A stretch of DNA of 37,514 nucleotides from Clostridia bacterium (GTDB taxonomy: Bacteria; Bacillota; Clostridia; UBA1381), in contig JAZROS010000132.1 of assembly GCA_045648825.1 (NCBI GenBank), forward strand, positions 1 to 37,514. Direction: 5' to 3'. A program made the translations under genes and the position numbers. This document shows positions 1-37,514 of this stretch, one piece after another. Each line of letters opens with the position of its first letter. The first letter of the stretch is position 1. The notes under the pieces are model-generated. The model saw only the letters and a list, made by a program, of their open reading frames with translations. It made no database searches and was not told the origin of the DNA.

Positions 1-141
1 AATTTTATCCTGTGTAAGATAGTCAACAATTCTGTCGCCAAGCTTATCAATTGCTGTAAGTGTGTTGCAATTGTATGTCTGCATATCGAATCTGTTCTGA
101 AGGTTCATCTTTTCGAGGTCACAGCAACAATCGGAAATCTG
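1..141. repeat. Terminal direct repeat, copy 1. Identical to 37374-37514 (assembly overlap of a circular genome, or true terminal redundancy).
   Basis: Read by eye: aattttatcctgtgtaagatagtcaac...acagcaacaatcggaaatctg occurs at both window ends with no mismatch noticed. Confidence 0.95.
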
Positions 142-606
142 TTTAGAAATATTCCAACTGTTTCTCTCATTGCCGTAAGCAACATCTTTAATTTCGCCCT
201 TAATACCACAGCAACAATCAGCCAACTGTGTTTGTATTGCATTTGTGTTCTGCAATGCCTGATATCCAAGTGTGCAGATTGCATTATCAACTGAACGGAA
301 ATTGTTGTTAAGTGTGTTTGTCAACTGGAACGTGCTATCACAGATACCATTGTTAATTCCGTCGAGTTTTCTTTCGATAGTTGCAAAGTCAGTAGCAAGT
401 ACATAGTTTTCGCCTACGCCACTACCACCGCCGTAACCTCCACCGAAGCCACCGCCAAAACCTCTACCGCCATAACCGAACAGAAGAAGAATTACAATCC
501 AAGCCCAATCGTTTCCGAAAAAGCCATTGTTACCATAACCGCCACCATTAGTTGCATCTCTACCAACTGCGTAGCCTGTTGCGAAATCATTTGAATTATC
601 CATCAT
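1..606 (-). CDS. N-terminal 202 codons of a junction-spanning gene. The full product is a 268-aa Gly-rich, single-TM protein with Cys clusters; it continues in frame at 37373->37173.
   Basis: Own translation from ATGATG at 606-601 (AAAGGA SD upstream): MMDNSNDFATGYAVGRDATNGGGYGNNGFFGNDWAWIVILLLFGYGGRGFGGGFGGGYGGGSGVGENYVLATDF...ADCCCGIKGE...SDCCCDLEKMNLQ. No stop occurs down to base 1. The frame matches track ORF 37173..37481 (606-108 = 498 nt). It is absent from the track because it runs off the window edge. Confidence 0.7.
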   Translation of the reverse strand, partial: MMDNSNDFATGYAVGRDATNGGGYGNNGFFGNDWAWIVILLLFGYGGRGFGGGFGGGYGGGSGVGENYVLATDFATIERKLDGINNGICDSTFQLTNTLNNNFRSVDNAICTLGYQALQNTNAIQTQLADCCCGIKGEIKDVAYGNERNSWNISKQISDCCCDLEKMNLQNRFDMQTYNCNTLTAIDKLGDRIVDYLTQDKI

Positions 607-672: not shown

Positions 673-885
673 TTAAATATCTTCGCCCATTGCCTGAACT
701 ACTTGCTGTGCTATTTGGGAAAATCTGTTGAAATCCTGTTGCGACATTCTTCCTGTCTGCAAAAGTCTTTCTACTTCCTGACGAGGATTTCCATTAAATT
801 GATTTTTGAAATTTCTTGCTTGCTTTATAAGGTCAGCCATTGGGTTTGATTGTTTACCCATCATATTGAACAAAGGATTTGACAT
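673..885 (-). CDS. Hypothetical protein (70 aa)
   Basis: Track ORF. The ATG is preceded by a GAGGAA SD and the gene is tightly packed with its neighbours. No motif recognised. Confidence 0.6.
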   Translation of the reverse strand: MSNPLFNMMGKQSNPMADLIKQARNFKNQFNGNPRQEVERLLQTGRMSQQDFNRFSQIAQQVVQAMGEDI

Positions 886-888
886 AGT

Positions 889-1413
889 TTATTCCTCGCT
901 TTCTTTTGTTTTTTTGCTTATTGTTTTCGCTTTTTCTACAACAGGGTGTGAGAGTTCTTCATACTTTGCCGTTAAATCGTCAATTTTGCCTTTTAAATCA
1001 TTTATTTGTTCTTTTGTGGCAAATTTATCACCGCAAGTACATTTGTGCGTTGTAGGCTCGTTTTTATCCTTTTCTGTGCGTTCTGTAAAATCATATATCT
1101 GCATTGACGGAACACCCTGTGCATTCGCGGTTTTGATATAGAATGTTTTGTTGTTTTTATCCCACAATACAACAGAATTATTTGGAGCGACAGGGTATGC
1201 ACTCGCTTCATTTTCATTTAAGACAAAAAGCATATCATTTGTCGGTTGTGTCTGAATAAACGGTGTAGGTGTCTGCATTGGCATCTGTTGCATTGTTTGT
1301 TGAACAGGAATTTGCTGATTTGTCTGCATGTTTGACATATCCTGTTGTGGTATTGATGGATTATAATATCCCATCGGTCTTGAATATGGTGCATAATAAG
1401 GTGTATAAGCCAT
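889..1413 (-). CDS. Hypothetical protein with a Q/P/M/Y-rich low-complexity N-terminus (174 aa)
   Basis: Track ORF with a GGAGAA SD. The first ~60 residues read YYAPYSRPMGYYNPSIPQQDMSNMQTNQQIPVQQTMQQMPMQTPTPFIQTQ. The C-terminal part has HKCTCG and a charged helical tail. Confidence 0.65.
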   Translation of the reverse strand: MAYTPYYAPYSRPMGYYNPSIPQQDMSNMQTNQQIPVQQTMQQMPMQTPTPFIQTQPTNDMLFVLNENEASAYPVAPNNSVVLWDKNNKTFYIKTANAQGVPSMQIYDFTERTEKDKNEPTTHKCTCGDKFATKEQINDLKGKIDDLTAKYEELSHPVVEKAKTISKKTKESEE

Positions 1414-1416
1414 AAT

Positions 1417-1797
1417 TTAATTCTCCTTTTTATAGTAATAAATTGGTACTTCTCCGGAACTATCCCAACTATCATACAAAACATTGTCGATAACACAAAC
1501 TGCGTGACTTCCTGTGCCAATAACATATGTTCCACGTGAAACATTTTGGCAAAAATCTTTTATTGTGTAACATTCGGGGCAATCATTTGAAACAATTTCC
1601 CTTGTGAATCCTTTTGATTTGAGGTAAGCATTCCAAACCGCGTTGCTTGAACCCCAATCACCCATAATATAGCCAAGCAAAGATAATTCAATGTAAGTTT
1701 CTTCCCAAGATTGGTTTAATGCTTTTGATATTGCTCTTATAACACAATCTCCCACTCGCTTATTTTTAATTGGATTTGGGTTATAATAACTATACAT
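1417..1797 (-). CDS. Small protein with an ordered Cys...His...Asp triad; possible papain-like (clan CA) peptidase or amidase fold.
   Basis: Track ORF (126 aa). It shows VGDCVIRA, then GTGSHAVCVID, then YDSWD in the order expected for a Cys-His-Asp catalytic core. This is inference from motif order only. Confidence 0.6.
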   Translation of the reverse strand: MYSYYNPNPIKNKRVGDCVIRAISKALNQSWEETYIELSLLGYIMGDWGSSNAVWNAYLKSKGFTREIVSNDCPECYTIKDFCQNVSRGTYVIGTGSHAVCVIDNVLYDSWDSSGEVPIYYYKKEN

Positions 1798-1921
1798 TTT
1801 CTTTTTTCCATTCCCATTTCAACATTCCGTCATTTATCAATGCCACAATGGTTGCATAAGCCGTTATAAAATCAAGGTCTTTTAGGTCATTATGATTTTT
1901 AATATACTGTGATATGTTCAA
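1790..1921 (-). CDS. Small hypothetical protein (43 aa, TTG start)
   Basis: Own translation: MNISQYIKNHNDLKDLDFITAYATIVALINDGMLKWEWKKENV. An AAAGGAG SD lies 8 nt upstream of the TTG, and the 3' end overlaps the next start. Below the track's size cut-off. Confidence 0.4.
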   Translation of the reverse strand: MNISQYIKNHNDLKDLDFITAYATIVALINDGMLKWEWKKENV

Positions 1922-1945
1922 AACAATCAACTCCTTTATGGTCAA

Positions 1946-1956
1946 AATATAACATA
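1946..1956 (-). promoter_or_regulatory. Possible extended -10 promoter (TATGT-TATATT) for the post-lysis accessory genes
   Basis: Minus strand reads TTTTTTTATGTTATATTTTGACC directly after the terminator: a TRTGn motif plus TATATT, with no -35 element. Confidence 0.3.
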
Positions 1957-1988
1957 AAAAAAGACAAGAAGCCTTTCAACTTCTTGTC
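1955..1988 (-). terminator. Intrinsic terminator ending the late/lysis operon
   Basis: 9-bp stem GACAAGAAG/CTTCTTGTC (1963-1971 / 1980-1988) with an 8-nt loop, followed on the minus strand by T7. Confidence 0.8.
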
Positions 1989-2003: not shown

Positions 2004-2210
2004 TTAAATTACTTTTTTAACTTTCTTTGTAATACTTTTTATCCGTCTTGATACTGTACTTTCCGACATATTCAATTCAAGTGATATCGAAATAATGCTT
2101 TTGCCTTTTCGTCTTAAATCAAATACCGCTATTTCATCTTCCGTAAAAGGACATTCGGAAAGAAAATATTCATATTCAGTACGGGTAAAGTCAAATTTGT
2201 TCAGCGGAAA
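2004..2210 (-). CDS. Sigma-70 region-4 / LuxR-type HTH protein (candidate late regulator). The reading frame lacks a canonical start codon.
   Basis: Own translation of a 68-codon open frame: FPLNKFDFTRTEYEYFLSECPFTEDEIAVFDLRRKGKSIISISLELNMSESTVSRRIKSITKKVKKVI. This shows the ...LT..E..VF.L...G.S...IA..L..S..TV..R...I..K pattern typical of region 4. The only in-frame start candidate is CTG at 2204. A 14-codon ORF (ATG 2245, MEMPKAKQQGSDFR) sits one frame away. Confidence 0.55.
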   Translation of the reverse strand, partial: FPLNKFDFTRTEYEYFLSECPFTEDEIAVFDLRRKGKSIISISLELNMSESTVSRRIKSITKKVKKVI

Positions 2211-2268: not shown

Positions 2269-2547
2269 TTAACGGTTATCTTCTGCCCCATTTAATATAT
2301 CACCATTTTCTCCGATATAATTGTTTACTCCTTCTCCGTCTTGCTCAACAATCATTTCATAACTTTCAAAATCATATTGGTATAAATACCACACAAACCC
2401 GCCAATAGTTGCAAGCCACATTGAAAGAATAACCATACAAGCAATGAACCATCTTTTTGCCTGTGCTGAATATCCTTTTAATAATTCCATTGCAAAGCTG
2501 TCTGTTTTTGTTTCGTGAGTTCCGCAAGAATTACAAGTTTTGCTCAT
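2269..2547 (-). CDS. Membrane protein of the lysis cassette (N-terminal CxxC, one TM)
   Basis: Track ORF 2269..2562. The ATG at 2547 has GAGGTG 7 nt upstream. Features are MSKTCNSCG... and the TM segment WFIACMVILSMWLATIGGFVWYLY. Confidence 0.6.
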   Translation of the reverse strand: MSKTCNSCGTHETKTDSFAMELLKGYSAQAKRWFIACMVILSMWLATIGGFVWYLYQYDFESYEMIVEQDGEGVNNYIGENGDILNGAEDNR

Positions 2548-2558
2548 TTTTATACACC

Positions 2559-2837
2559 TCATTTGAAATTAAAATACAAAAATGCTACTATGCCTGTAAT
2601 TATACACCCAAGAACCGCAGTTGTCAACCAATTGTTAAATTTTAAACCACTTTTGGTTTCGCTTCGCATTTGTTTTATTTCATTTGCCATAAGGTCAATG
2701 CGTTTGTCATCGTTGGCAAATTTAGAATTAACTTGTTCCTGCTTATCATTGCAATCATCTATTTGCACAAAGATATTTTTGCACTCAGCAATGACCTCTT
2801 TTTTTATAGCCGTTATTTCTTCGTGTGTCAATGCCAT
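2559..2837 (-). CDS. XhlA-like lysis-associated membrane protein (coiled coil plus C-terminal TM)
   Basis: Track ORF (92 aa). It has a helical N-terminal part and the C-terminal anchor WLTTAVLGCIITGIVAFLYF. It sits in the lysis cluster, as xhlA does in PBSX-type cassettes. Confidence 0.5.
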   Translation of the reverse strand: MALTHEEITAIKKEVIAECKNIFVQIDDCNDKQEQVNSKFANDDKRIDLMANEIKQMRSETKSGLKFNNWLTTAVLGCIITGIVAFLYFNFK

Positions 2838-3037
2838 TACTTATCCTCCGATATATTTGTCTTGTTGTTTTTTTGAAAATAGCTTGTAAATACAGAACTT
2901 GCAATTGAAACAAAAAGAGTTTTAATCGCTTCATCTTCAATCTGTATGTTAACAAATATAATTGTAACAAGTGTTACTGCAATTAGAATTGTCAAAAGGC
3001 TTTTCAAATCAAATAAGTTTTCAATCTTTTTAAGCAT
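2837..3037 (-). CDS. Putative holin (66 aa, two hydrophobic segments, charged C-terminus)
   Basis: Track ORF. Hydrophobic segments LLTILIAVTLVTIIFV and LFVSIASSVFTSYF are followed by a polar tail. It has a TAATG overlap with the endolysin stop. Confidence 0.55.
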   Translation of the reverse strand: MLKKIENLFDLKSLLTILIAVTLVTIIFVNIQIEDEAIKTLFVSIASSVFTSYFQKNNKTNISEDK

Positions 3038-4027: not shown

Positions 4028-4201
4028 TTATTCCTCCGTATTTTCAATATTTTCATTTTGTTTTGCTTTTATTTTTTTGTATTCCTCAACAGATATTTCG
4101 TGAAATTCTGAAGCTTTTCTGTCATCGCCAAGCGTTAATATTTTGCCGAAAATTTCACCGTCTGTTAAAATCATATTTTCACTTGCATAAATCTCATTCA
4201 T
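4028..4201 (-). CDS. Hypothetical protein (57 aa)
   Basis: Track ORF 4028..4222. The ATG at 4201 lies 5 nt after GAGGTG and downstream of the preceding stop. Confidence 0.5.
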   Translation of the reverse strand: MNEIYASENMILTDGEIFGKILTLGDDRKASEFHEISVEEYKKIKAKQNENIENTEE

Positions 4202-4211
4202 ACAATCACCT

Positions 4212-4901
4212 CTAAATCTCACTTATTGTAACTCCGCTCGGTTTCAATGCTTTTACTTCATCCCAAGTCATGCCATTTGGGAACACCGCATTATTCACCG
4301 CCTTTTGTGAAAGTGTTAAAGTTACACCACTCGCGGCAGAATAAAAATGGGTTACGGTATCATAAATGCTTTCACCATCCAAATTTTCACAATCAGACAT
4401 ATCTAAATTCTGCCCGATTTCTCCACCCCATCTTACATGAACAAGATTTCTATCAAAAGTAAACCAATTTGTGAACAATTGGTCTTTATTTACGGTTATC
4501 TTTTGAATTTTTCTTAACATACCGCAATTGTTGAATACATACAAAGAACCTGATGTAATGACAATCTCGGTAAGGATTTCTTCAATATAGCCGTTTGCTC
4601 TAAACATACTGTTCCCGCCATTTGTTCCATAAATACCACCTGCCGATGAAGCTAACCCTGTACCTAATATCGGGTATTTAGCTTTTAAAACAGGAAATGG
4701 ATATGCATCATAAGCAAAGAAATATGGGTAAAATATTCTGTTGCCATAGTTCTGTATAATGTCCCAATTATGGTCAATCCCTGCACTATAAACTTCATCA
4801 ATTTTACTTTCAAACTGCGAGGGTGCAATCAAATCTTGATTTCCCAAAAAAAATCTTATTTCGTCAGCAATAGGCTTGGTTAATTCACTTAATAAACTCA
4901 T
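4212..4901 (-). CDS. Tail fibre / receptor-binding region protein (position-based)
   Basis: Track ORF 4212..4916. The ATG at 4901 has GGGAGG 7 nt upstream and an ATGA overlap with the upstream stop. It is the last large gene of the tail module. Confidence 0.5.
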   Translation of the reverse strand: MSLLSELTKPIADEIRFFLGNQDLIAPSQFESKIDEVYSAGIDHNWDIIQNYGNRIFYPYFFAYDAYPFPVLKAKYPILGTGLASSAGGIYGTNGGNSMFRANGYIEEILTEIVITSGSLYVFNNCGMLRKIQKITVNKDQLFTNWFTFDRNLVHVRWGGEIGQNLDMSDCENLDGESIYDTVTHFYSAASGVTLTLSQKAVNNAVFPNGMTWDEVKALKPSGVTISEI

Positions 4902-6466: not shown

Positions 6467-8211
6467 TTTAACACCGCCTCTTTTACAATAATATTTCCGT
6501 TAAGATTAAATGATTGTTTTATCAATCTTCCACTAACAACACCAAGATATTCCGTTTCTGCCTTTATATTTTCGCCTACATTGACTTTTTCATCATATGT
6601 AATAATATTAGGGTATTTACCGCCATATTTCAATCCTGTACCGTATTTTAAGCCTGTACCATATTTATATGGCTCTCCATACTGAATGTGTTTACCCTCA
6701 ACGATTTTTAAATTCGTTGTATTGGTCTTTATAAGCCAATTATAACATTTTTCAAGTACATTGTCAATGTTATATTGTGAAACAAGTGTAGCGGAATCAA
6801 TCGCTACCACTTTCTCAATTTCGCTTGATAATACAACAGGATTATTTTTTCTTCTTGTTTGTGTTGTGTGGTTGTATTTATAACCTGCAAGAGAACAATT
6901 TCCCGTTACATTTAAAACCGCAAAATTTGTTCCGCTTTTTACAATCGAACCGCCTGAAGAAATTTGCAAATTGAAACAAGGCTCTGAAAAAACAATAAAT
7001 ATATTTTCTCCCTTTTCTCCTGTTTCGGTATTGTTGAACAATTCAATCATTTCTTCGCTTGGTGTGTAATTGTGAACTGTCACTTCAACTCCTGTAACCG
7101 TTTCTTCATCAACAAAATTCTGCCCTTGCATAATTCGATTGAGTGGTACTGTCTGCTTGATATCTTCTTCAAGAGTAAACACCTTTACAACCTCACTATT
7201 GCTTGTATCAACAACCGCCTGAATAGCAAAAGCCACTTGCATAAGAGCATCACGGCAAGTCGTGAATGGGATATATCCTGTAACTGTTGCATCTGCAAAA
7301 ACATCATCAATGCTATACGGCACTTTTGCAACTGTAAAAATATCAGTCAAAAGTTCAACTGCATTTTTGTTGGTATAAATACCGCCATAATATGGTATGC
7401 TATCAAGCAAACCGATATAATCTTCACTTTGTATACTCCACAATCTTTTTGCCTTGCGTGTGGATTTTTTAACAAAGGTAGTTGCTTTTAATTCGCCATT
7501 AAAATACACGCTCAAAGGTTGTTTTGCCTGAAAAGAATATTCCATATCGGTTTTACTGTCAAGGGTAAAATCTGCCGTATTTATGCTTATCTGTGTGCTT
7601 ATAGGGTCTATCTCTTGTATAAGTTTAACCCCTCGCAACTCATCGCCATAAAAGAATGTGCCATATCCATAGTCAATTACACGCAATTTAAGGCGGTTTT
7701 TAGGCATATTTAATGAATAGAATGTAATTACTACCTTGTTATAATTTTCAACGAAATTACGGCAAAAATAGAACGCATTATCGGGGTTATATTCTTTCTC
7801 GTCAAGTGTTGTTATGCCCTCGTCTGTTATTCGCAACCATTTTATGCCTAATCTTGTAGGGTGTATGCCGTTGTAAGTGTCAAAAGTTAAAGTCAAGCCT
7901 TGCGAAGAATACTGACCTGCACTTTCCAATTCCAAAACAATAGGCTCTGTAAATGTTCCGTCATCGTTGCTTATTTGTTCGCTCCACAACCCCAAATTTG
8001 CTTGTTCAGGTACAGACGGAAATGCCTGAGCCGTTCCGTCTAATACTACTGAAAACAATTCACAAGGGTTTGCATAATTCGGGAAATTAAGGTTATATTG
8101 TTGTAACTGTGCAAGTGTGTCAAATTCGCTTTCGCTTGCAGATGGAATAAAATTTTCCTTCGCTTCGGGTGCGACATCTCCATATCTTATTGCTACGCCT
8201 TTATTGTTCAT
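6463..8211 (-). CDS. Large tail tip / baseplate protein (Tal-like by position, 582 aa)
   Basis: Track ORF, the second gene after the tape measure, with an ATGA overlap to the upstream gene. The C-terminal part carries a KYGTGLKYGTGLKYGGKY micro-repeat. Confidence 0.6.
   Translation of the reverse strand: MNNKGVAIRYGDVAPEAKENFIPSASESEFDTLAQLQQYNLNFPNYANPCELFSVVLDGTAQAFPSVPEQANLGLWSEQISNDDGTFTEPIVLELESAGQYSSQGLTLTFDTYNGIHPTRLGIKWLRITDEGITTLDEKEYNPDNAFYFCRNFVENYNKVVITFYSLNMPKNRLKLRVIDYGYGTFFYGDELRGVKLIQEIDPISTQISINTADFTLDSKTDMEYSFQAKQPLSVYFNGELKATTFVKKSTRKAKRLWSIQSEDYIGLLDSIPYYGGIYTNKNAVELLTDIFTVAKVPYSIDDVFADATVTGYIPFTTCRDALMQVAFAIQAVVDTSNSEVVKVFTLEEDIKQTVPLNRIMQGQNFVDEETVTGVEVTVHNYTPSEEMIELFNNTETGEKGENIFIVFSEPCFNLQISSGGSIVKSGTNFAVLNVTGNCSLAGYKYNHTTQTRRKNNPVVLSSEIEKVVAIDSATLVSQYNIDNVLEKCYNWLIKTNTTNLKIVEGKHIQYGEPYKYGTGLKYGTGLKYGGKYPNIITYDEKVNVGENIKAETEYLGVVSGRLIKQSFNLNGNIIVKEAVLK
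6739..6767 (-). promoter_or_regulatory. Perfect consensus promoter TTGACA-17-TATAAT inside the 3' end of the tail tip gene
   Basis: Minus strand reads cATTGACAatgtacttgaaaaatgtTATAATtgg. The -35 is at 6767-6762, the -10 at 6744-6739, and the spacer is exactly 17 nt. Confidence 0.55.
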
Positions 8212-22620: not shown

Positions 22621-22762
22621 TCTCATCTTCCTTTCTCTGCTTCTCTATCAGCCAACGAATAAAGGCTGATATTGTCATTTCGTGTTTGTGTGCCATTTTT
22701 CGCACTTCGTTGTACTGTTCAGCCGTTGAAAACTGAACGATTAAAGTTTTTGTGTCAGACAT
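22607..22762 (-). CDS. Ribbon-helix-helix small protein, paralogue 1 (51 aa)
   Basis: Own translation: MSDTKTLIVQFSTAEQYNEVRKMAHKHEMTISAFIRWLIEKQRKEDENAVR. A GAGGAGG SD lies upstream, and the start overlaps the 3' end of the methyltransferase gene. Confidence 0.6.
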   Translation of the reverse strand: MSDTKTLIVQFSTAEQYNEVRKMAHKHEMTISAFIRWLIEKQRKEDENAVR

Positions 22763-23430
22763 TCTTTCGCCTCCTCAATTCTTTTCTTTGCTATGTTAAA
22801 ATAATTTTCGTCTAATTCAATGCCGATAAAATCACGATTTGTGTTTACACAAGCAACACCTGTAGAGCCAACACCCATAAAACCATCAAAAATGACCGCA
22901 CCTTCATCGCTTGACTTTTCAATGGCTTGAACAAGCAAATCAACAGGCTTTTGGTTTTGGTGTTCTTGTTCTTTTGGCTTAACTCTTGCAAATTGCCAAA
23001 CATCAGAAATTCGTTTACCTCTTATTTTTGGCTGACCTTTACTTGCAAATATAATAAACTCATAAGAATAGCCAAAAGTGGTTGACAAATCGCCCATTCC
23101 GTTTCTTTGCTTATCCCAAATTATAATGTTTTTGAGATTAAAGCCTGCAGTTTCAATTTGTTGCTTGAAAAAGTCAATTTTTTTGTAATTGCAGAAACAA
23201 TAAATAGCCGTATTGTCTTTCATTATTCGGTAACATTCCTGCAGGTACTTTTCAATCATACCTTCGTTTGCAGAATTGTTTTCATCATTTGCAATCTTCT
23301 TTGAAAATCTGCTCTTGCTATCGTGCCTTGAATAATCGCACAAATACGGAGGGTCTGTTAATACCATATCAACACTTTCATTTGGTATTTGTTTCATAAC
23401 CTCAAGGCAATCGCCATTTAACAATTTCAT
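22741..23430 (-). CDS. DNA methyltransferase, beta-class N6-adenine / N4-cytosine (N6_N4_Mtase type)
   Basis: Catalytic motif IV VLTDPPY lies near the N-terminus, and AdoMet motif I FDGFMGVGSTGVAC lies near the C-terminus. The order IV->I defines the beta class. Confidence 0.85.
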   Translation of the reverse strand: MKLLNGDCLEVMKQIPNESVDMVLTDPPYLCDYSRHDSKSRFSKKIANDENNSANEGMIEKYLQECYRIMKDNTAIYCFCNYKKIDFFKQQIETAGFNLKNIIIWDKQRNGMGDLSTTFGYSYEFIIFASKGQPKIRGKRISDVWQFARVKPKEQEHQNQKPVDLLVQAIEKSSDEGAVIFDGFMGVGSTGVACVNTNRDFIGIELDENYFNIAKKRIEEAKECLTQKL

Positions 23431-26534: not shown

Positions 26535-27305
26535 TCAAATTCTGTGCTTTGGCACATACCCACTTTCAAAAACCTTTTCCATATCAAAGATATTTCCAAA
26601 GTTGCCATATTCCTTACGGCTAAACTTTTTCATAGGTCTATCGGTTTTGGTCTGCATTTCTTTCAACCGTTTCCAATAGGTGTTACGGAAATAATACCAA
26701 ATGTTGTATAATTCCCATTGATTTTTATTTGCACAACACCAACAGGACACTCTATCAAGTATTGAATATAGGTCAATATATCCGCAATCGGTCTTGTCTG
26801 TTTCTTCAAGCCATTCAACACCATTTTGTCTGTTGAGTTGTAAACAATCTTTTTCATTCATTCCCCATTCTTTCAATGGGTGTATTTTATATTCTTTATC
26901 GGGTGTTCGGTTGATTTCGTTTAAAGCAATACCGACATAAACCATTGCATTTTTTTCTTCACAATATTTATCAAGTATTTTTATCTTGTCAGTAGTTCCC
27001 CATCTACACATACCGCCACACCAAGAATATCCGTTATGATAACCGCTACCGTCCCTATTCTTTACAAGGATATTAAACATTTTATCCTCAAAATCATAAT
27101 CGGGTTGTAGCATTGTGCATTTTATACCCAAAGGCTCATACTGTCTTTTTACCCATTCCCAAACATTATAGATACAATCAAAATCCATTCCGTTTGAATA
27201 AAAAACAATTTCGTCAAGTGGATATTTTCTGCGGACTAATTCTTGTACCATTGCCATACTGTCATTTCCGCAACTTACAGAAGCAATATAATACTTTTTA
27301 CTCAT
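26535..27305 (-). CDS. PAPS-reductase-family PP-loop ATP-pyrophosphatase (DndC-like), paralogue 2
   Basis: It shows SVSCGNDSMAM, WCGGMCRWGT, DRVSCWCC and RPMKKF...GN.FDMEKVF, all shared with paralogue 1. The ATG at 27305 lies 8 nt after GGAG. Confidence 0.7.
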   Translation of the reverse strand: MSKKYYIASVSCGNDSMAMVQELVRRKYPLDEIVFYSNGMDFDCIYNVWEWVKRQYEPLGIKCTMLQPDYDFEDKMFNILVKNRDGSGYHNGYSWCGGMCRWGTTDKIKILDKYCEEKNAMVYVGIALNEINRTPDKEYKIHPLKEWGMNEKDCLQLNRQNGVEWLEETDKTDCGYIDLYSILDRVSCWCCANKNQWELYNIWYYFRNTYWKRLKEMQTKTDRPMKKFSRKEYGNFGNIFDMEKVFESGYVPKHRI

Positions 27306-27396
27306 ATTCATATCTCCTAACAGATTAAATTTATATAAAGCAAGTAATCAATGGTTAGGCATTGAAAAGGGAGCTACCCTCTGTCCTTGCAATATA

Positions 27397-27600: not shown

Positions 27601-27874
27601 GTGTTTGGTTAGCATATTGTATCAACTCCTTGTAAATTATTTTGGCAGGGAATAAAGGTACTGCCCCTCTTTCAACGGAGTCAAAGTCCGTTGCATTACT
27701 TTTATGCTAATTCCCTATAATTACGCACCGAAAAGTCTAAATTTCACCTTTTCGGCACTTCTCGTCTTTCAACACATTACATCGTTCCAATGTCGAACGC
27801 AAATTCTCGTTGTTCTTGTTCCGAGCCGTCAAAAAATATACAGAAAGGAGGTTAAAATGAAAAACATTATACCC
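27577..27874 (-). ncRNA. ~300-nt structured non-coding leader / candidate ncRNA between a consensus promoter and a terminator
   Basis: No credible ORF is present. Hairpins lie at 27783-27799, 27725-27758 (11 bp, with two G.U pairs that form only in the minus-strand RNA), 27673-27693 and 27644-27665, plus the terminator. The ends are inferred from promoter and terminator positions only. Confidence 0.4.
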
Positions 27875-35460: not shown

Positions 35461-35644
35461 TTTTCTTTACCTCATATTCTTTCATTTTGTTTTCAAATTT
35501 GATTTTGTTTACTTCTGTTGGTTGACTTATTCCTTTTTCATATCGGTAAATCATAAAAGCACCAACCCCGAAAAGTTCAGCCAACTGCATTTGTGTTAGA
35601 TTATGCTTTGCACGGAACTCCAACAACTTTTTGCTGTAGCACAT
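35441..35644 (-). CDS. XRE-family helix-turn-helix transcriptional regulator (Cro/CI-type), the first early gene
   Basis: LTQMQLAELFGVGAFMIYRYEKGISQPT is the classic HTH_3 pattern. The gene lies immediately downstream of the early promoter. Confidence 0.85.
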   Translation of the reverse strand: MCYSKKLLEFRAKHNLTQMQLAELFGVGAFMIYRYEKGISQPTEVNKIKFENKMKEYEVKKNENVKM

Positions 35645-35673
35645 TTTATCACCTCTCTTTAATTTGTTGTCTT

Positions 35674-35702
35674 AATTGTATCATACTTTTTCATAGTTGT
35701 CA
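35674..35702 (-). promoter_or_regulatory. Near-consensus early promoter TTGACA-17-TACAAT
   Basis: Minus strand reads aaaagtaTTGACAactatgaaaaagtatgaTACAATtaag. It shares flanking sequence with the promoter at 31517-31545. Confidence 0.65.
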
Positions 35703-35740
35703 ATACTTTTCTATAAAAATCTTTAATATTTTTTACAACA

Positions 35741-35769
35741 AAAAACCGCCCTATCGCTAGAACGGTTTT
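35741..35769 (-). terminator. Hairpin plus U-tract separating the accessory arm from the early operon
   Basis: Minus strand reads AAAAACCGTTCTAGCGATAGGGCGGTTTTTTGTTGT. The GC core is short (ACCG/CGGT) and is extended by A/U pairs. Confidence 0.4.
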
Positions 35770-35825
35770 TGATTGGCAAGTCAAAATGAAAAATCCTTGC
35801 CATTAATGAGGTGGGTTTAATTATA

Positions 35826-36062
35826 TCACCTTTTTATTAACTTGTCAAGGTTGAGCATATCAAAAACAATTTTGCGTTCTTGCTCATTTTGTGTGCTTGA
35901 ATAAACGGCACGACAAAAATCGGCAATTTCAACACATAATTTTTGTAGATTGATTATGTTATGGTCTGCCTTATATTTGTGCAAAGATGGGATTATGCCA
36001 ACAACCTCTTTGTATTCTTCTGTTAGTTGCGTAGGTGTTACATTATCCTCGAATTTATCCAT
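35826..36062 (-). CDS. Hypothetical protein (78 aa)
   Basis: Track ORF with an AAAGGAA SD. Confidence 0.6.
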   Translation of the reverse strand: MDKFEDNVTPTQLTEEYKEVVGIIPSLHKYKADHNIINLQKLCVEIADFCRAVYSSTQNEQERKIVFDMLNLDKLIKR

Positions 36063-36079
36063 AACAATATTCCTTTCTG

Positions 36080-36586
36080 TTATGCTCTTTCTATTTTCCT
36101 CATCGCATCTTTGAGGATTTCTCTCTGTTCCTCGTCTGCCGAGGACATCATTTCCCCCAATTTGTTCATCATATGGTCTTTTGCATCATCACGGCTGTAA
36201 CCTCTGCCACCGCGACCGCCTCTGTATGAACTTTCTTCGGAATAATCATCATAAGATGAACTGCCCTCATAAGAACTACCTTCGGAAGAATATCTACCCA
36301 TACTGTCACGCTTTGCATTTCTACCTCTGCCTCTACGTTCGGAGTACATCATATCATCATCGTATGAAGAACCGCCCATATAAGACGAACGACCTCTACC
36401 TCTGCCGCCTCTTGCTTCGGAATAACCTCCGATTTCTTCTTCCAACATTTCAATCTTGTCAAGATTTTTTACGGTGTCTGTCAACTTGTGTATTACATCA
36501 ATATCAGCCATTGACAATTTGTTTTTCATAGCATACTCGTCAAGTTCCTTGCAGAGCATTTTTTTAATTTTTTCAATATATTCCAT
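36080..36586 (-). CDS. RGG/SY-rich intrinsically disordered protein flanked by helical N- and C-terminal segments (168 aa)
   Basis: The central ~90 residues read GGYSEARGGRGRGRSSYMGGSSYDDDMMYSERRGRGRNAKRDSMGRYSSEGSSYEGSSSYDDYSEESSYRGGRGGRGYSRDD. The flanks are helical (MEYIEKIKKMLCKELDEY... and ...EEQREILKDAMRKIERA). Confidence 0.65.
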   Translation of the reverse strand: MEYIEKIKKMLCKELDEYAMKNKLSMADIDVIHKLTDTVKNLDKIEMLEEEIGGYSEARGGRGRGRSSYMGGSSYDDDMMYSERRGRGRNAKRDSMGRYSSEGSSYEGSSSYDDYSEESSYRGGRGGRGYSRDDAKDHMMNKLGEMMSSADEEQREILKDAMRKIERA

Positions 36587-36603
36587 AATTCAACACTCCT
36601 TTC

Positions 36604-37053
36604 TTATGCTACACGGTCGAAAATGATATTAGCATTTGCAATATCAATAGCCGTACCGTCACTTGTATTCTCCACAGAAACTGTTACACAGCAACCGCAG
36701 GGAATTGTTATAAATGTTGTTAATGAAACATTAAAGAAATTTGCCAATGTTGCAGGAACGCCCACCGCCGCAGGAGTAACAACTGCAACCGCATTTGCAA
36801 GAGTTTCTCCATCTTCTTGTAATGCTACGGAAATCGGTCCAACTGTGCCACCTTCTGCAACTGCAATATTAGCATCAAATGTTACACGATAAATAGATTT
36901 GCAACCATTTGTAGCACCTTTTAAGCGGAACACACCCGAACCGCTTCTGTGTGTAATATATCCCTTGTTACAAGCTCTATCGCCGTCAAGGAATACAATA
37001 TTTTCATCCTCTGCAACTGTCTGCACGAGGGGATAACTATATTCTGCTGCCAT
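36604..37053 (-). CDS. Beta-rich protein resembling a BclA C-terminal / C1q-TNF-like jelly roll (149 aa)
   Basis: It has an alternating beta-strand pattern, AEGGTVGPISVALQEDGETLANA..., a PCGCCVTVSVEN motif, and the C-terminal ANANIIFDRVA (compare BclA ...ASIIIEKVA). The ATG at 37053 lies 7 nt after GAAAGGAAG. The similarity is from memory only. Confidence 0.55.
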   Translation of the reverse strand: MAAEYSYPLVQTVAEDENIVFLDGDRACNKGYITHRSGSGVFRLKGATNGCKSIYRVTFDANIAVAEGGTVGPISVALQEDGETLANAVAVVTPAAVGVPATLANFFNVSLTTFITIPCGCCVTVSVENTSDGTAIDIANANIIFDRVA

Positions 37054-37078
37054 AAAAATACTTCCTTTCAAATAAAAT

Positions 37079-37111
37079 AAGGCGATAAGGTTATGACTAC
37101 CCTACCGCCTT
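37079..37111 (-). terminator. Imperfect hairpin plus U-rich tract after the junction-spanning gene
   Basis: AAGGCG...CGCCTT outer stem with an inner GGT/ACC stem. On the minus strand it is followed by ATTTTATTT. Confidence 0.4.
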
Positions 37112-37172
37112 TTAACATTATCGGTCAAATACCGAACATTCCGACTTAACGGAAAGTAGTCTAATTATTCAA

Positions 37173-37514
37173 TTAGAATGAGCCACAACCACATCCATTA
37201 GAAGCATAGTTTACAGTTCCGCAACAATTTGTCGGGAAAGTAACCTGCTGAGGGGGCTGTACGATGTATGCAGGTTCAGGACATTTTTCGCCAAGTCTTG
37301 AAATAAGGTACTCGTTCTGCTTTGCCTGTGAAGCCGCAAGTCTAAGAGCCTGATTGTCTGCTGTAAGAGTTGCAATTTTATCCTGTGTAAGATAGTCAAC
37401 AATTCTGTCGCCAAGCTTATCAATTGCTGTAAGTGTGTTGCAATTGTATGTCTGCATATCGAATCTGTTCTGAAGGTTCATCTTTTCGAGGTCACAGCAA
37501 CAATCGGAAATCTG
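37173..37514 (-). CDS. C-terminal part of the junction-spanning Gly/Cys-rich membrane protein gene (see 1..606)
   Basis: Track ORF 37173..37481 stays open in frame to the window end. Because 37374-37514 = 1-141, it joins the open frame at 1..606. The protein ends ...PTNCCGTVNYASNGCGCGSF. Confidence 0.7.
   Translation of the reverse strand, partial: QISDCCCDLEKMNLQNRFDMQTYNCNTLTAIDKLGDRIVDYLTQDKIATLTADNQALRLAASQAKQNEYLISRLGEKCPEPAYIVQPPQQVTFPTNCCGTVNYASNGCGCGSF
37374..37514. repeat. Terminal direct repeat, copy 2 (identical to 1-141)
   Basis: Read by eye; see copy 1. Confidence 0.95.

Follow-up and report, generated by a model that had tools for sequence, protein, structure and literature searches.

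The window, meaning the whole 37,514-nucleotide stretch of DNA analyzed here, carries a genuine phage gene that is cut in two by the ends of the contig and whose product is, on profile comparison, an ordinary full-length member of the protein family phrog_16490. The best reading of this junction gene is that it supplies the membrane anchor and stalk of a conserved accessory cassette, which is predicted to be transcribed separately. In the form that we favor, with a probability of roughly 0.38, the protein would sit N-out/C-in in the host membrane and, as anchor and stalk, carry a thiol-rich assembly formed on the inner face of that membrane in the course of infection.

The gene becomes visible once the contig ends are joined. 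Bases 1-141 of the window are an exact copy of 37374-37514, leaving a unique circle of 37,373 bp; such an overlap is consistent with assembly at k=141, the genome being circular or terminally redundant, and the names of related contigs contain "k141". Joining minus-strand positions 606->1 to 37373->37173 gives a single open frame of 268 codons plus stop, with an AAAGGA ribosome-binding site preceding the ATG at 606. That one gene spans the junction had been proposed in an earlier note on this DNA, and independent contigs now bear this out. Uncut homologues lie inside the contigs L015 (95% identity) and L016 (96% identity), both over residues 1-268; the 38.5-kb contig P0002 holds an uninterrupted homologue that is 96% identical; and a 1,672-nt contig from another sample is collinear with the window along 36306 -> 37373|1 -> 536. 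As the same gene is found uninterrupted in independent contigs, the join is not an artifact. The gene had indeed been missed by the linear list of open reading frames, in which it appears only as two open-ended pieces, 1..606 and 37173..37514. Linear gene callers systematically lose genes in this way across the arbitrary break of circular contigs. Its parts are as follows.

1..606, minus strand: 5' part of the junction gene, codons 1-202 (acidic N-tail, hydrophobic helix, Gly-rich linker, start of the rod)
469-507, minus strand: hydrophobic helix of the junction gene, residues 34-46
208-216 and 121-129, minus strand: CCC triplets of the junction gene, residues 131-133 and 160-162
37173..37373, minus strand: 3' part of the junction gene, codons 203-268 and stop codon at 37173-37175 (end of the rod, tail)
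37374..37514, no strand: end duplicate of 1-141, an assembly overlap that adds no extra sequence

The 1,672-nt contig is the only one from an RNA library. The same library also contains a 34-kb contig and the short contig may be DNA carry-over, so it is no proof of expression. Two host-animal RNA runs gave zero reads. Among public sequencing runs, none held more than 34% of the window's words and no run held the exact sequence, and a near-identity DNA search against phage genomes found nothing.

The junction protein runs from MMDNSNDF to NGCGCGSF and begins with an acidic tail; a short hydrophobic helix with Gly-rich tracts on either side comes next, then a helix of about 155 residues, and last a PxPAY / CC / GCGC tail. 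All motifs quoted in the earlier note are present: Gly/aromatic tracts surround WAWIVILLLFGY, DCCCG occupies residues 130-134 and DCCCD residues 159-163, and the tail is NCCGTVNYASNGCGCGSF. The 3' part carries an ENQALRLAASQ-type motif, a PEPAY Pro-rich motif, and the NCC...GCGC tail. The four-part architecture described earlier agrees with the AlphaFold model, in which residues 35-43 and 74-229 are helical and the remainder is disordered; the monomer model is poor overall (pLDDT 61.6) and reaches 97 within residues 170-230. The label "glycine zipper" is not borne out, as GxxxG repeats are absent from the hydrophobic core and the glycines lie at its flanks.

The long helix and its cysteines follow a regular plan. 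Its hydrophobic stripe repeats every 3.63 residues, which corresponds to a hendecad or 29-residue periodicity and not to heptads. CCC is found in 117 of 123 family members, the spacing between triplets is 29 residues in every listed member with at least two of them, and in the window's protein the middle cysteines of the triplets, C132 and C161, sit on the hydrophobic stripe. Across the family the N- and C-terminal ends are strongly conserved and the length of the rod varies; the window and L038 proteins, for example, are nearly identical over residues 1-60, similar over 229-268, and diverged in the rod, giving 42% overall. The uncharged segment is short (median of 16 residues across the 123 members), and that it spans the membrane is a prediction. 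Toward the N-terminus, the closest charged residue is acidic in 119 of the 123, and toward the C-terminus it is Arg in 61 of 75; the remaining 48 of the 123 have no charge within 12 residues on the C-side, so that the charge bias is modest.

Residues 19-266 of the junction protein align with positions 17-282 of the 286 in the phrog_16490 profile (PHROGs v4, E 2.7e-26), and we find no difference that would set it apart from the family. PHROGs v4 labels phrog_16490 "unknown function", with neither an assigned fold nor a Pfam model, and one RefSeq virus record already tags a homologue with this family. Searches of Pfam, NCBIfam, and PDB by sequence or profile returned nothing significant for the junction protein, Foldseek found no match for its low-confidence model, and literature searches turned up nothing on the family. 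The earlier note had asked whether homologues exist and are phage-borne, and they are: there are more than 7,200 related sequences, clustering at 50% identity leaves at least 1,078 clusters that match at E<=1e-3, and among 50,697 deposited phage genomes the family is restricted, by identified host, to viruses of strict anaerobes of the gut. It has full-length members in a cultured phage of Bacteroides uniformis, in numerous crAss-like phages, and in Methanomassiliicoccales-assigned viruses, and most hosts are monoderm Clostridia. With thousands of sequences and more than 1,000 clusters, phrog_16490 is among the larger blocks of gut-virome dark matter. It also spans the deepest host divides, from monoderm to diderm bacteria and probably archaea, and a function that is independent of the envelope and bound to anoxic life would be unusual. 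Two carriers are in culture, Bacteroides phage C3_41T2LP of B. uniformis, where the gene is WLZ21182, and the Clostridium perfringens CPD1-type phages, where it is CPD1_039, and they make the role of the gene directly testable.

The junction gene is the largest in an accessory arm that begins after the terminator of the lysis operon, on both counts as previously described. All genes of this phage lie on one strand, and the arm and its borders read, in the direction of transcription, as follows.

2004..2204, minus strand: 66-aa LuxR/GerE-type HTH gene with a CTG start, immediately upstream of the arm
1951..1988, minus strand: intrinsic terminator of the lysis operon (stem 1988->1963 followed by T7)
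1790..1945, minus strand: 51-aa first ORF of the arm, TTG start, conserved in several relatives
1417..1797, minus strand: 126-aa papain-like protein, phrog_3754, model pLDDT 92
889..1413, minus strand: 174-aa protein, phrog_21718, also in Clostridium perfringens phage CPD1
673..885, minus strand: 70-aa Gln-rich helical protein, phrog_22984, directly upstream of the junction gene
37079..37111, minus strand: terminator-like hairpin between the junction gene and the BclA_C-related gene
36604..37071, minus strand: BclA_C-related partner, about 149-155 aa, beta-rich, PCGCC motif, phrog_20016
36080..36586, minus strand: 168-aa protein with helical ends and an Arg/Gly/Ser/Tyr/Asp-rich low-complexity core, syntenic in about 25 loci
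35826..36062, minus strand: 78-aa last gene of the arm, found in closer relatives only
35675..35848, minus strand: two consensus sigma-70-type promoters with TG extension (35848->35820 and 35703->35675), which start the early operon after the arm

The same gene order recurs in about 30 loci as a cassette of seven to eight genes, with the peptidase gene shifted to the 3' end of the cassette in distant loci. None of the partners has an N-terminal signal peptide or membrane segment, and none has a lipobox. In the phrog_20016 family directly downstream of the junction gene, 3 of 19 members match Pfam BclA_C (best E 5e-7), and the window's own copy is below every Pfam threshold. The 174-aa partner combines a Tyr/Pro/Gln/Met-rich N-terminus, a conserved small domain (WVxGExEAxSYPVAPN...), an HxCxC motif, and a C-terminal helix, with no relative in PDB or Pfam. 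In the papain-like family, Cys18, Arg21, His98, and Asp109 are invariant among 27 sequences. The resemblance to papain is at the level of the fold only, and the best PDB structure matches, the Josephin domains of Josephin-2 and ataxin-3 (TM 0.50, E 0.07), are not significant; the model is compatible with a Cys-His-Asp papain-like protein, for which a predicted peptidase, transferase, or cross-linking activity would be equally compatible. A double-glycine bacteriocin precursor served by a C39 peptidase was considered and rejected, as the neighbor family has no Pfam C39 match and the "precursor" would be a 268-aa rod.

Outside Clostridia phages, the neighbors of the family have no detectable homology to the window's partners, and therefore the cassette may be conserved only in outline. 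In profile-profile comparison the BclA_C-related partner showed no homology to the genes downstream of the Bacteroides, crAss, and bajarodcaudo homologues, and Pfam gave no match for those genes either. An endolysin search of IMG/VR returned only distant phages without the cassette and no cassette-free sister genome. No cysteine tRNA is located beside the cassette in the window.

The borders and mobility of the cassette recall phage morons, which are autonomous promoter-gene-terminator insertions. A promoter-like element found by scan (TTGAAA-17-TATGTT) overlaps the terminator at 1951..1988, together with an overlapping extended -10-like word, TGTTATATT, and the arrangement of a T-run with TGnTAnnnT is present in 13 of 22 related loci as against 6% of shuffles. 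In L022 the cassette stands in reverse orientation between unchanged flanks, and its position varies among genomes. It thus shares with morons the preceding terminator with a fused promoter-like element, the inversion, and the changing position, and fits an autonomous accessory unit; it differs in consisting of seven to eight co-adapted genes rather than one and in having its own small HTH gene upstream. The claim that terminators bound the arm survives for the upstream stem at 1988->1963 but not downstream, where there is a weak long-loop hairpin that the scan did not call. The spacer that contains the other, terminator-like hairpin, at 37079..37111, is swapped for 77 other letters in a related contig. 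A position typical of lysogeny or conversion genes, also suggested earlier, is not supported for this phage, given the one-strand gene layout, the two consensus early promoters directly after the arm, and a search that found no integrase- or recombinase-like ORF.

From these features we infer the following mechanism for the inner-face stalk. The hydrophobic helix would insert N-out/C-in, as the acidic N-flank and the Arg after the helix suggest, and this orientation would place the rod in the cytoplasm, where the cassette partners are also made and, given that none has a signal peptide, would stay. The rods may bundle in parallel with little supercoil, in which case each CCC would form a thiol ring about 4.3 nm from the next, and metal or disulfides could hold such rings together. 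The conserved PxPAY/CC/GCGC tail would dock the Cys-bearing beta-protein encoded next door, and the papain-like enzyme may trim or cross-link some component. Oligomer state, thiol rings, and docking to the neighbor are all deduced from sequence. The product would be a thiol-rich layer or stalk-and-knob array under the host membrane in lytic infection, belonging neither to the virion nor to the spore. Such an array could serve membrane remodeling around egress, exclusion of other phages, or organization of phage processes.

The opposite orientation, which we consider unlikely, would make the protein a surface stalk and knob inserted N-in/C-out, whose rod crosses the wall or periplasm and shows a BclA_C-like trimer, with a role in superinfection exclusion or in adhesion or aggregation of infected cells. 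An N-terminal anchor followed by a helix of about 23 nm does resemble type II surface stalks, and BclA_C-type trimers, whose Pfam model is matched by 3 of 19 members of the neighbor family, are normally surface tips. A variable rod between conserved ends is also seen in arms-race proteins, and the position and autonomous (predicted) promoter are typical of exclusion morons. The charge distribution, however, favors N-out/C-in, and the knob protein and other partners, lacking signal peptides, could not get outside before lysis. Fourteen cysteines, triplets included, would face the exterior, and one design would have to serve monoderm, diderm, and archaeal envelopes.

It is likewise improbable that the junction protein is a head or tail fiber or an ejected membrane-penetration protein, with the Gly-rich hydrophobic segment in the role of a fusion peptide and the under-twisted coiled coil in that of a class I core that aids DNA delivery through the membrane of any host. 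The top PDB profile matches are coronavirus spike S2 HR1 and influenza HA2 from its fusion peptide (E 0.02-2, nonsignificant), and depositors have labeled relatives "spike protein/glycoprotein" or "outer capsid protein/viral fiber"; in GenBank, the "spike protein" naming goes back to weak similarity to class I fusion coiled coils. The protein has in common with HA2 and S2 HR1 that a long helix of periodicity near 3.6 comes after a hydrophobic, Gly-rich segment, and composition and 3.6-type periodicity can explain the matches. Unlike class I fusion proteins, it has no receptor-binding subunit, second heptad region, or C-terminal anchor, and with its single long helix, no C-terminal hydrophobic segment, and no Foldseek match we rejected that identity; tailed phages have no envelope. 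A protein that works at the membrane could serve in Gram-positive, Gram-negative, and archaeal hosts without distinction. In Dulem virus 35 the cassette is flanked by the genes for the minor and major capsid proteins, and in cr116_1 it has head genes as neighbors. These two locations are compatible with a virion role and so tell against the inner-face stalk, as do the weak HA2 and S2 matches (E>=0.02), which would suit a membrane-penetration protein. Against a virion component stands the mobility of the cassette: it turns up at different places and in phages whose backbones are unrelated (siphoviruses, crAss-like phages), its orientation relative to the late genes can be reversed, and it carries a promoter-like element of its own behind a terminator, all unusual for a part fitted to capsid or tail. 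The tape measure and distal tail set of the window phage are, moreover, already complete.

An accessory in lysis or egress, that is, a membrane-lesion or remodeling protein working with the holin-endolysin genes and broadly comparable to i-spanins or to the proteins with which archaeal viruses form pyramids for egress, is in our view quite unlikely. In the window lineage and in bajarodcaudo virus 5 the cassette comes immediately after the lysis genes, and in cr116_1 it has holin and carboxypeptidase genes nearby; the cytoplasmic membrane is moreover a target that every host type offers. The end of the late operon, however, is a general hot spot for inserted genes, and elsewhere the gene lies among recombination genes, in the head module, or between tail genes and an integrase. 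With Rz, an i-spanin of a kind that belongs to phages of Gram-negative bacteria, the protein shares an N-terminal anchor, a long helical or coiled-coil rod, potentially chain-linking cysteines, a Pro-rich tail, and frequent proximity to lysis genes, but its predicted topology is the opposite, no outer-membrane lipoprotein partner accompanies it, and there is no sequence match. The N-out/C-in charge bias, the neighbors without lipobox or signal peptide, and the mostly Clostridia hosts, which as monoderms need no spanin, led us to reject an i-spanin. A holin was also rejected, as neither Pfam nor PHROGs gave a holin match and separate holin-like genes lie at 2269-3037; no spanin family match was found either. 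We note that the lysis reading and the inner-face stalk overlap if the array acts at egress.

A bolder form of the thiol-rich assembly, which we hold to be very unlikely, is a portable kit of anaerobic gut viruses of Clostridia, Bacteroides, and methanogenic archaea that builds an oxygen-switched, membrane-anchored thiol matrix around the progeny. The CCC rings and the Cys-bearing, Gln-rich, and Arg/Tyr-rich partners would be reduced in the anoxic gut and would cross-link when the lysate meets oxygen. If true, the hardened matrix would wrap or tether progeny, protect them during passage between animals, and dissolve under reducing conditions, as a phage counterpart of the occlusion body.

Barely tenable is a spore-surface or sporulation conversion module, through which the phage would equip the spores of its Clostridia host with coat- or exosporium-like proteins; it is suggested by the Gly-, Cys-, Gln-, and Ser/Tyr/Arg-rich composition of the cassette, the BclA_C-related neighbor, the GerE/LuxR-type regulator upstream, and 46-52-aa peptides in host-family genomes with the same Gly / hydrophobic helix / CCC / CC layout, and is largely refuted by host range. 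Full-length members occur in Bacteroides phages and Methanomassiliicoccales-assigned viruses, and the hosts of the Bacteroides uniformis phage, the crAss-like phages, and the Methanomassiliicoccales viruses make no spores. A phage without lysogeny genes must, in addition, act within the lytic cycle, and the GerE-type HTH domain is generic. The sporulation likeness raised earlier is, as that note itself cautioned, one of composition only: no sporulation family matched in NCBIfam or Pfam, for either the protein or its N-terminal 68 residues, and the whole protein gave nothing in NCBIfam at E<=1 except a spurious SigW match. A YjcZ-type Gly-rich sporulation peptide was rejected because the N-terminal 68 residues have no NCBIfam match at E<=10 and the protein has 268 aa as against under about 60 aa. 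The exosporium nap of the Bacillus cereus group (BclA C-terminal domain, ExsFA/BxpB anchor) resembles the cassette in the BclA_C-related neighbor family, the richness in Cys, and the look of self-assembly; it differs in that the junction protein has neither collagen repeats nor BclA_C by Pfam, which also removes a BclA or exosporium collagen-like glycoprotein as a candidate, and in that members of the family occur in phages of non-sporulators.

A minor observation concerns the HTH gene at 2004..2204, in place of which relatives have a sigma-70-region-4-like gene of ~70 aa. The GACAAGAA repeats are a candidate binding site of the small HTH protein.

Window bases 1-141 are identical to the last 141 bases, and the contig is therefore a 37,373-bp genome, circular or terminally redundant, opened by the assembler at an arbitrary point; the overlap fits the "k141" in the names of related contigs. 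The linear ORF list holds two open-ended minus-strand pieces at this point, 1..606 and 37173..37514, and joining them through the overlap gives a single frame of 268 codons. This junction gene starts MMDNSNDF from an ATG at 606, preceded by an AAAGGA ribosome-binding site, and ends ...NGCGCGSF with a stop codon at 37173-37175. Homologues that are 95% and 96% identical lie unbroken deep within contigs of other assemblies (L015 and L016), the protein database contains a 268-aa protein of 96% identity encoded on a 38.5-kb contig, and a contig of 1,672 nt, assembled from another sample, is collinear with the window from 36306 through 37373|1 to 536. With the unbroken genes in other assemblies, the database protein, and the collinear contig as three independent lines in agreement, the join is correct, as the earlier note had proposed; its anatomy of a polar N-terminus, one membrane segment between Gly/aromatic repeats, a cysteine-punctuated helical region, and a tail is also accurate. 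No public sequencing run contained more than one third of the window's sequence words.

As a family member the junction protein is ordinary: it matches the catalogued phrog_16490, which carries no assigned function, over its full length in PHROGs (E 2.7e-26); Pfam, NCBIfam, and PDB gave no significant match. This family is very large, with more than 7,200 relatives among 8,000 candidates scored and at least 1,078 clusters at 50% identity matching at E<=1e-3 in a search without a word index. We defined it by an alignment of 59 diverse members and by statistics on 123. The N-tail of about 29 residues (on average 3.2 Asp/Glu and 0.7 Lys/Arg) precedes a hydrophobic segment that is free of charges, has a median length of 16 residues and the usual form W-W-I-I-I-L-F-A-L-I-F-G-W, and has Gly/Asn/aromatic tracts on both sides. 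The helical region carries 11-residue GF..GV...I repeats and a nearly invariant Q-x-A-x-C-C-C motif; further motifs are L..EN.AL.LAASQ..QN and PCP.PAY.V.NP, and the tail carries CC and GCGC. CCC occurs in 117 of the 123 members, and in members with two or three triplets the spacing is 29 residues in every listed case.

AlphaFold, run with the family alignment, predicts a short helix at 35-43, a continuous helix at 74-229, and disorder elsewhere; pLDDT reaches 97 within residues 170-230. A single period of 3.63 residues dominates the hydrophobicity of residues 74-229; it equals 29/8, is near 11/3, and is the mark of a bundle with hardly any supercoil, not of a heptad coiled coil. As C132 and C161 lie on the hydrophobic stripe (F74, I77, L81, I84, I88 ... 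I124, L128, C132, I135 ... I157, C161, L164), the middle cysteine of each CCC is predicted to point to the core, with the first facing the helix-helix seam and the third outward. Lengths in the family span about 223 to 340 residues, as 11- and 29-residue units are gained or lost. When the window is compared with a related phage (L038), the backbones are nearly the same (holin, 89%; Arg/Tyr-rich partner, 82%) and the junction proteins share only 42% identity overall, with near-identity over residues 1-60 and high similarity over residues 229-268; the intervening rod has diverged and lost one CCC unit. Conserved ends around a variable spacer would fit a stalk that is attached by one end to the membrane and by the other to a partner. 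Separately, two chromosomal genes in genomes from the bin's family (L009:1489-1662, minus strand; L013:1483-1641, plus strand) encode 46-52-aa peptides, MGLFGGCG..W.WILIIIVL.CCCD.GNGG...CC..CC, with no NCBIfam match; they have the layout of the junction protein's two ends with the rod missing.

The gene belongs to an arm, or cassette, of a phage genome in which all recognizable genes lie on the minus strand, in the following order.

35848->35820 and 35703->35675, minus strand, two consensus sigma-70-type promoters at the start of the gene order
After the promoters, minus strand, Cro-like HTH gene
After the Cro-like HTH gene, minus strand, exonuclease, phrog_3657 protein, SSB, primase, and helicase, in this order
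After the helicase, minus strand, large terminase, portal, minor head protein, and major head protein, in this order
After the head genes, minus strand, tape measure and distal tail genes, then endolysin and holin-like genes
1988->1963, minus strand, intrinsic terminator, after the endolysin and holin-like genes and before the arm
1790-1945, 1417-1797, 889-1413, and 673-885, minus strand, arm genes preceding the junction gene
606->1 joined to 37373->37173, minus strand, junction gene
36604-37071, 36080-36586, and 35826-36062, minus strand, remaining arm genes

The cassette was surveyed in 59 fetched loci with tblastn and HMM searches; about 30 of these loci share a fixed gene order: a papain-like protein, a Gln/Pro-rich protein, a small Gln-rich protein, the junction protein, a beta-rich Cys protein, and an Arg/Gly/Ser/Tyr-rich protein, and only some of the loci end with an additional small gene. 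Among more distant loci, the papain-like gene has shifted to the 3'-terminal position but is still part of the block. Cys18, Arg21, His98, and Asp109 are invariant in this partner, whose confident model (pLDDT 92) is closest among solved structures to Josephin domains and then to other papain-fold enzymes, none significantly; the fold is common among very diverse phages as an unnamed protein. Three of 19 members of the downstream beta protein family match Pfam BclA_C (best E, 5e-7), and the window's own copy passes no threshold. Neither phrog_16490 nor the cassette that it anchors matches any characterized system.

The nearest charge on the N side of the hydrophobic segment is Asp/Glu in 119 of 123 members. 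On the C side, 75 members have a charge within 12 residues, and in 61 of them the nearest one is Arg; the segment is short, and a third of the members carry no C-side charge. The positive-inside rule bears on the orientation of membrane segments, and small coat proteins with acidic N-tails offer a precedent. This charge bias, the rule, and the analogy favor an N-out/C-in orientation, which would place the rod and its 14 cysteines in the cytoplasm. As no signal peptide or hydrophobic segment is evident in the sequences of the other seven arm products, any complex with the junction protein must form inside the cell. As the best-supported reading it can be hypothesized, with a probability of roughly 0.38, that the protein is a parallel helical rod of low supercoil, tethered to the membrane and facing the cytoplasm, with thiol rings along it at 29-residue spacing (about 4.3 nm); its conserved Cys/Pro tail would meet the Cys-bearing beta protein of the adjoining gene, and the papain-fold enzyme would trim or cross-link a component. 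A surface stalk would share the conserved ends and variable spacer with the opposite topology, against the charge bias, and is unlikely; to a similar degree we doubt a virion fiber or penetration protein.

Searches of the phage genome found no integrase, recombinase, or divergent repressor, and the position that the earlier note had taken for one of lysogeny or conversion genes is not supported as such. As lysogeny genes are not detectable, the arm should act within the lytic cycle. An accessory to egress, next to the endolysin and holin-like genes, would overlap with the reading of a membrane-tethered rod and is slightly less probable than a surface stalk or virion fiber. The window corresponds to contig C132 in a metagenome bin (G000) of 1.27 Mb and 76% completeness, and its relatives are binned with Clostridia (Eubacteriales, Oscillospiraceae, Acutalibacteraceae, Christensenellaceae, and Lachnospiraceae). 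The bin of bacterial contigs has taken in a complete phage genome that is apparently non-integrating and should not be attributed to the organism's chromosome. The phrog_3657 protein, of unknown function, aligns with RecT-annotated genes of relatives. Ordinary phage cargo includes a PAPS-reductase-like gene just before the large terminase (26535-27311, minus strand) and a DNA methyltransferase gene after the portal gene (22741-23430, minus strand). At 27646-27716 (minus strand) Rfam reports a tRNA (49.2 bits; gathering score, 29) where ARAGORN calls none; its anticodon loop, read by eye as CUUUGAC, would give anticodon UUG for Gln, an amino acid abundant in the cassette proteins.

A translated search of 50,697 phage genomes identified the following carriers of the family.

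Uncultured gut phages of human, lemur, rodent, and pig
Five Clostridium perfringens phages, CPD1 among them
Cultured Bacteroides uniformis phage C3_41T2LP
At least a dozen crAss-like phages
Phage csAssE-Sib, 151 kb
Two viruses assigned to Methanomassiliicoccales, one already labeled phrog_16490

The homologues in Bacteroides and crAss phages belong to the family over their full length (HMM E 1e-36 and 7e-30) and share the Gly-rich helix, the QCCC, ASQ, and P.PAY motifs, and the CGC tail. All identified hosts are strict anaerobes, and the searches yielded no carrier from an aerobic or facultative host. This points to a role independent of envelope type yet compatible only with anoxic life, consistent with the 5% cysteine of the junction protein. 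An oxygen-hardening matrix that protects progeny particles would also use those cysteines but is improbable. Carriers infecting strict anaerobes across Clostridia, Bacteroides, and Methanomassiliicoccales-assigned hosts rule out a spore-specific role, and the spore-related function earlier suggested by composition is very improbable.

In Bacteroides and crAss phages, the genes downstream of the homologue are like the window's partners in size and composition.

Cys-bearing beta protein, 136-180 aa
Protein of about 170 aa with a coiled coil at its C-terminus
Arg/Asp/Tyr/Gly-rich protein, 75-125 aa
L061 (C3_41T2LP) 7344-7808, small HExxH protein
L062 (cr116_1) 4165-4512 and 6745-7140, small HExxH proteins

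The HExxH proteins, one annotated as a PolyVal-type metallopeptidase, stand where Clostridia phages have the papain-like protein and may represent a non-homologous protease replacement. Sequence homology between these downstream genes and the window's partners was not detectable, and the resemblance is no more than suggestive.

In the window lineage the cassette lies between lysis and early genes; at L022:6747-9843 it is inverted as a whole between the same flanking genes, and the small upstream HTH gene is absent. In peptidase-first related loci the gene just upstream usually encodes an HTH protein of 66-71 aa; the window copy (2004-2204, minus strand) scores above the Pfam GerE/LuxR threshold, and relatives' copies resemble sigma-70 region 4. 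The window ORF lacks an ATG, GTG, or TTG start; it apparently begins at a CTG (2204) preceded by an AAGGAAG site. A Lys-rich ORF of 26 codons, MGQKITVKKKVRKKKNGNAKGKATRK, lies in frame with it and six bases upstream, and is closed by a TGA (2004-2291 for the pair); read-through would give a 95-aa protein. Downstream of the HTH gene, a hairpin with a T-run is followed by an extended -10-like word, TGnTAnnnT, in 13 of 22 loci and in 6% of shuffled sequences, and a promoter scan places TTGAAA-17-TATGTT over the window's terminator. The word GACAAGAA is present three times in 1963-2001: two copies are direct (ATTGACAAGAA twice), and the third is inverted and makes up the terminator's 3' arm; the repeats look like a candidate operator for the product of the adjacent upstream HTH gene.

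A second, weaker hairpin separates the junction gene from the beta-protein gene, a spacer that one related contig swaps for 77 other letters. Directly after the arm, the two promoters (TTGACA-17-TATAAT and TTGACA-17-TACAAT, both with TG) are 145 bp apart; the first overlaps the end of gene 35826-36062, and a weak, long-loop hairpin with a T-run lies between them. A single RNA-library contig at depth 18 covers 36306-37373|1-536, which may be DNA carry-over, as the same library contains a 34-kb contig. Three runs (X1, X2, and X6) from ruminant and other mammal gut samples, compared with window 35600-37514, yielded hundreds of short contig fragments of 85-99% identity in the cassette; a swarm of related cassette variants seems to coexist within single gut samples.
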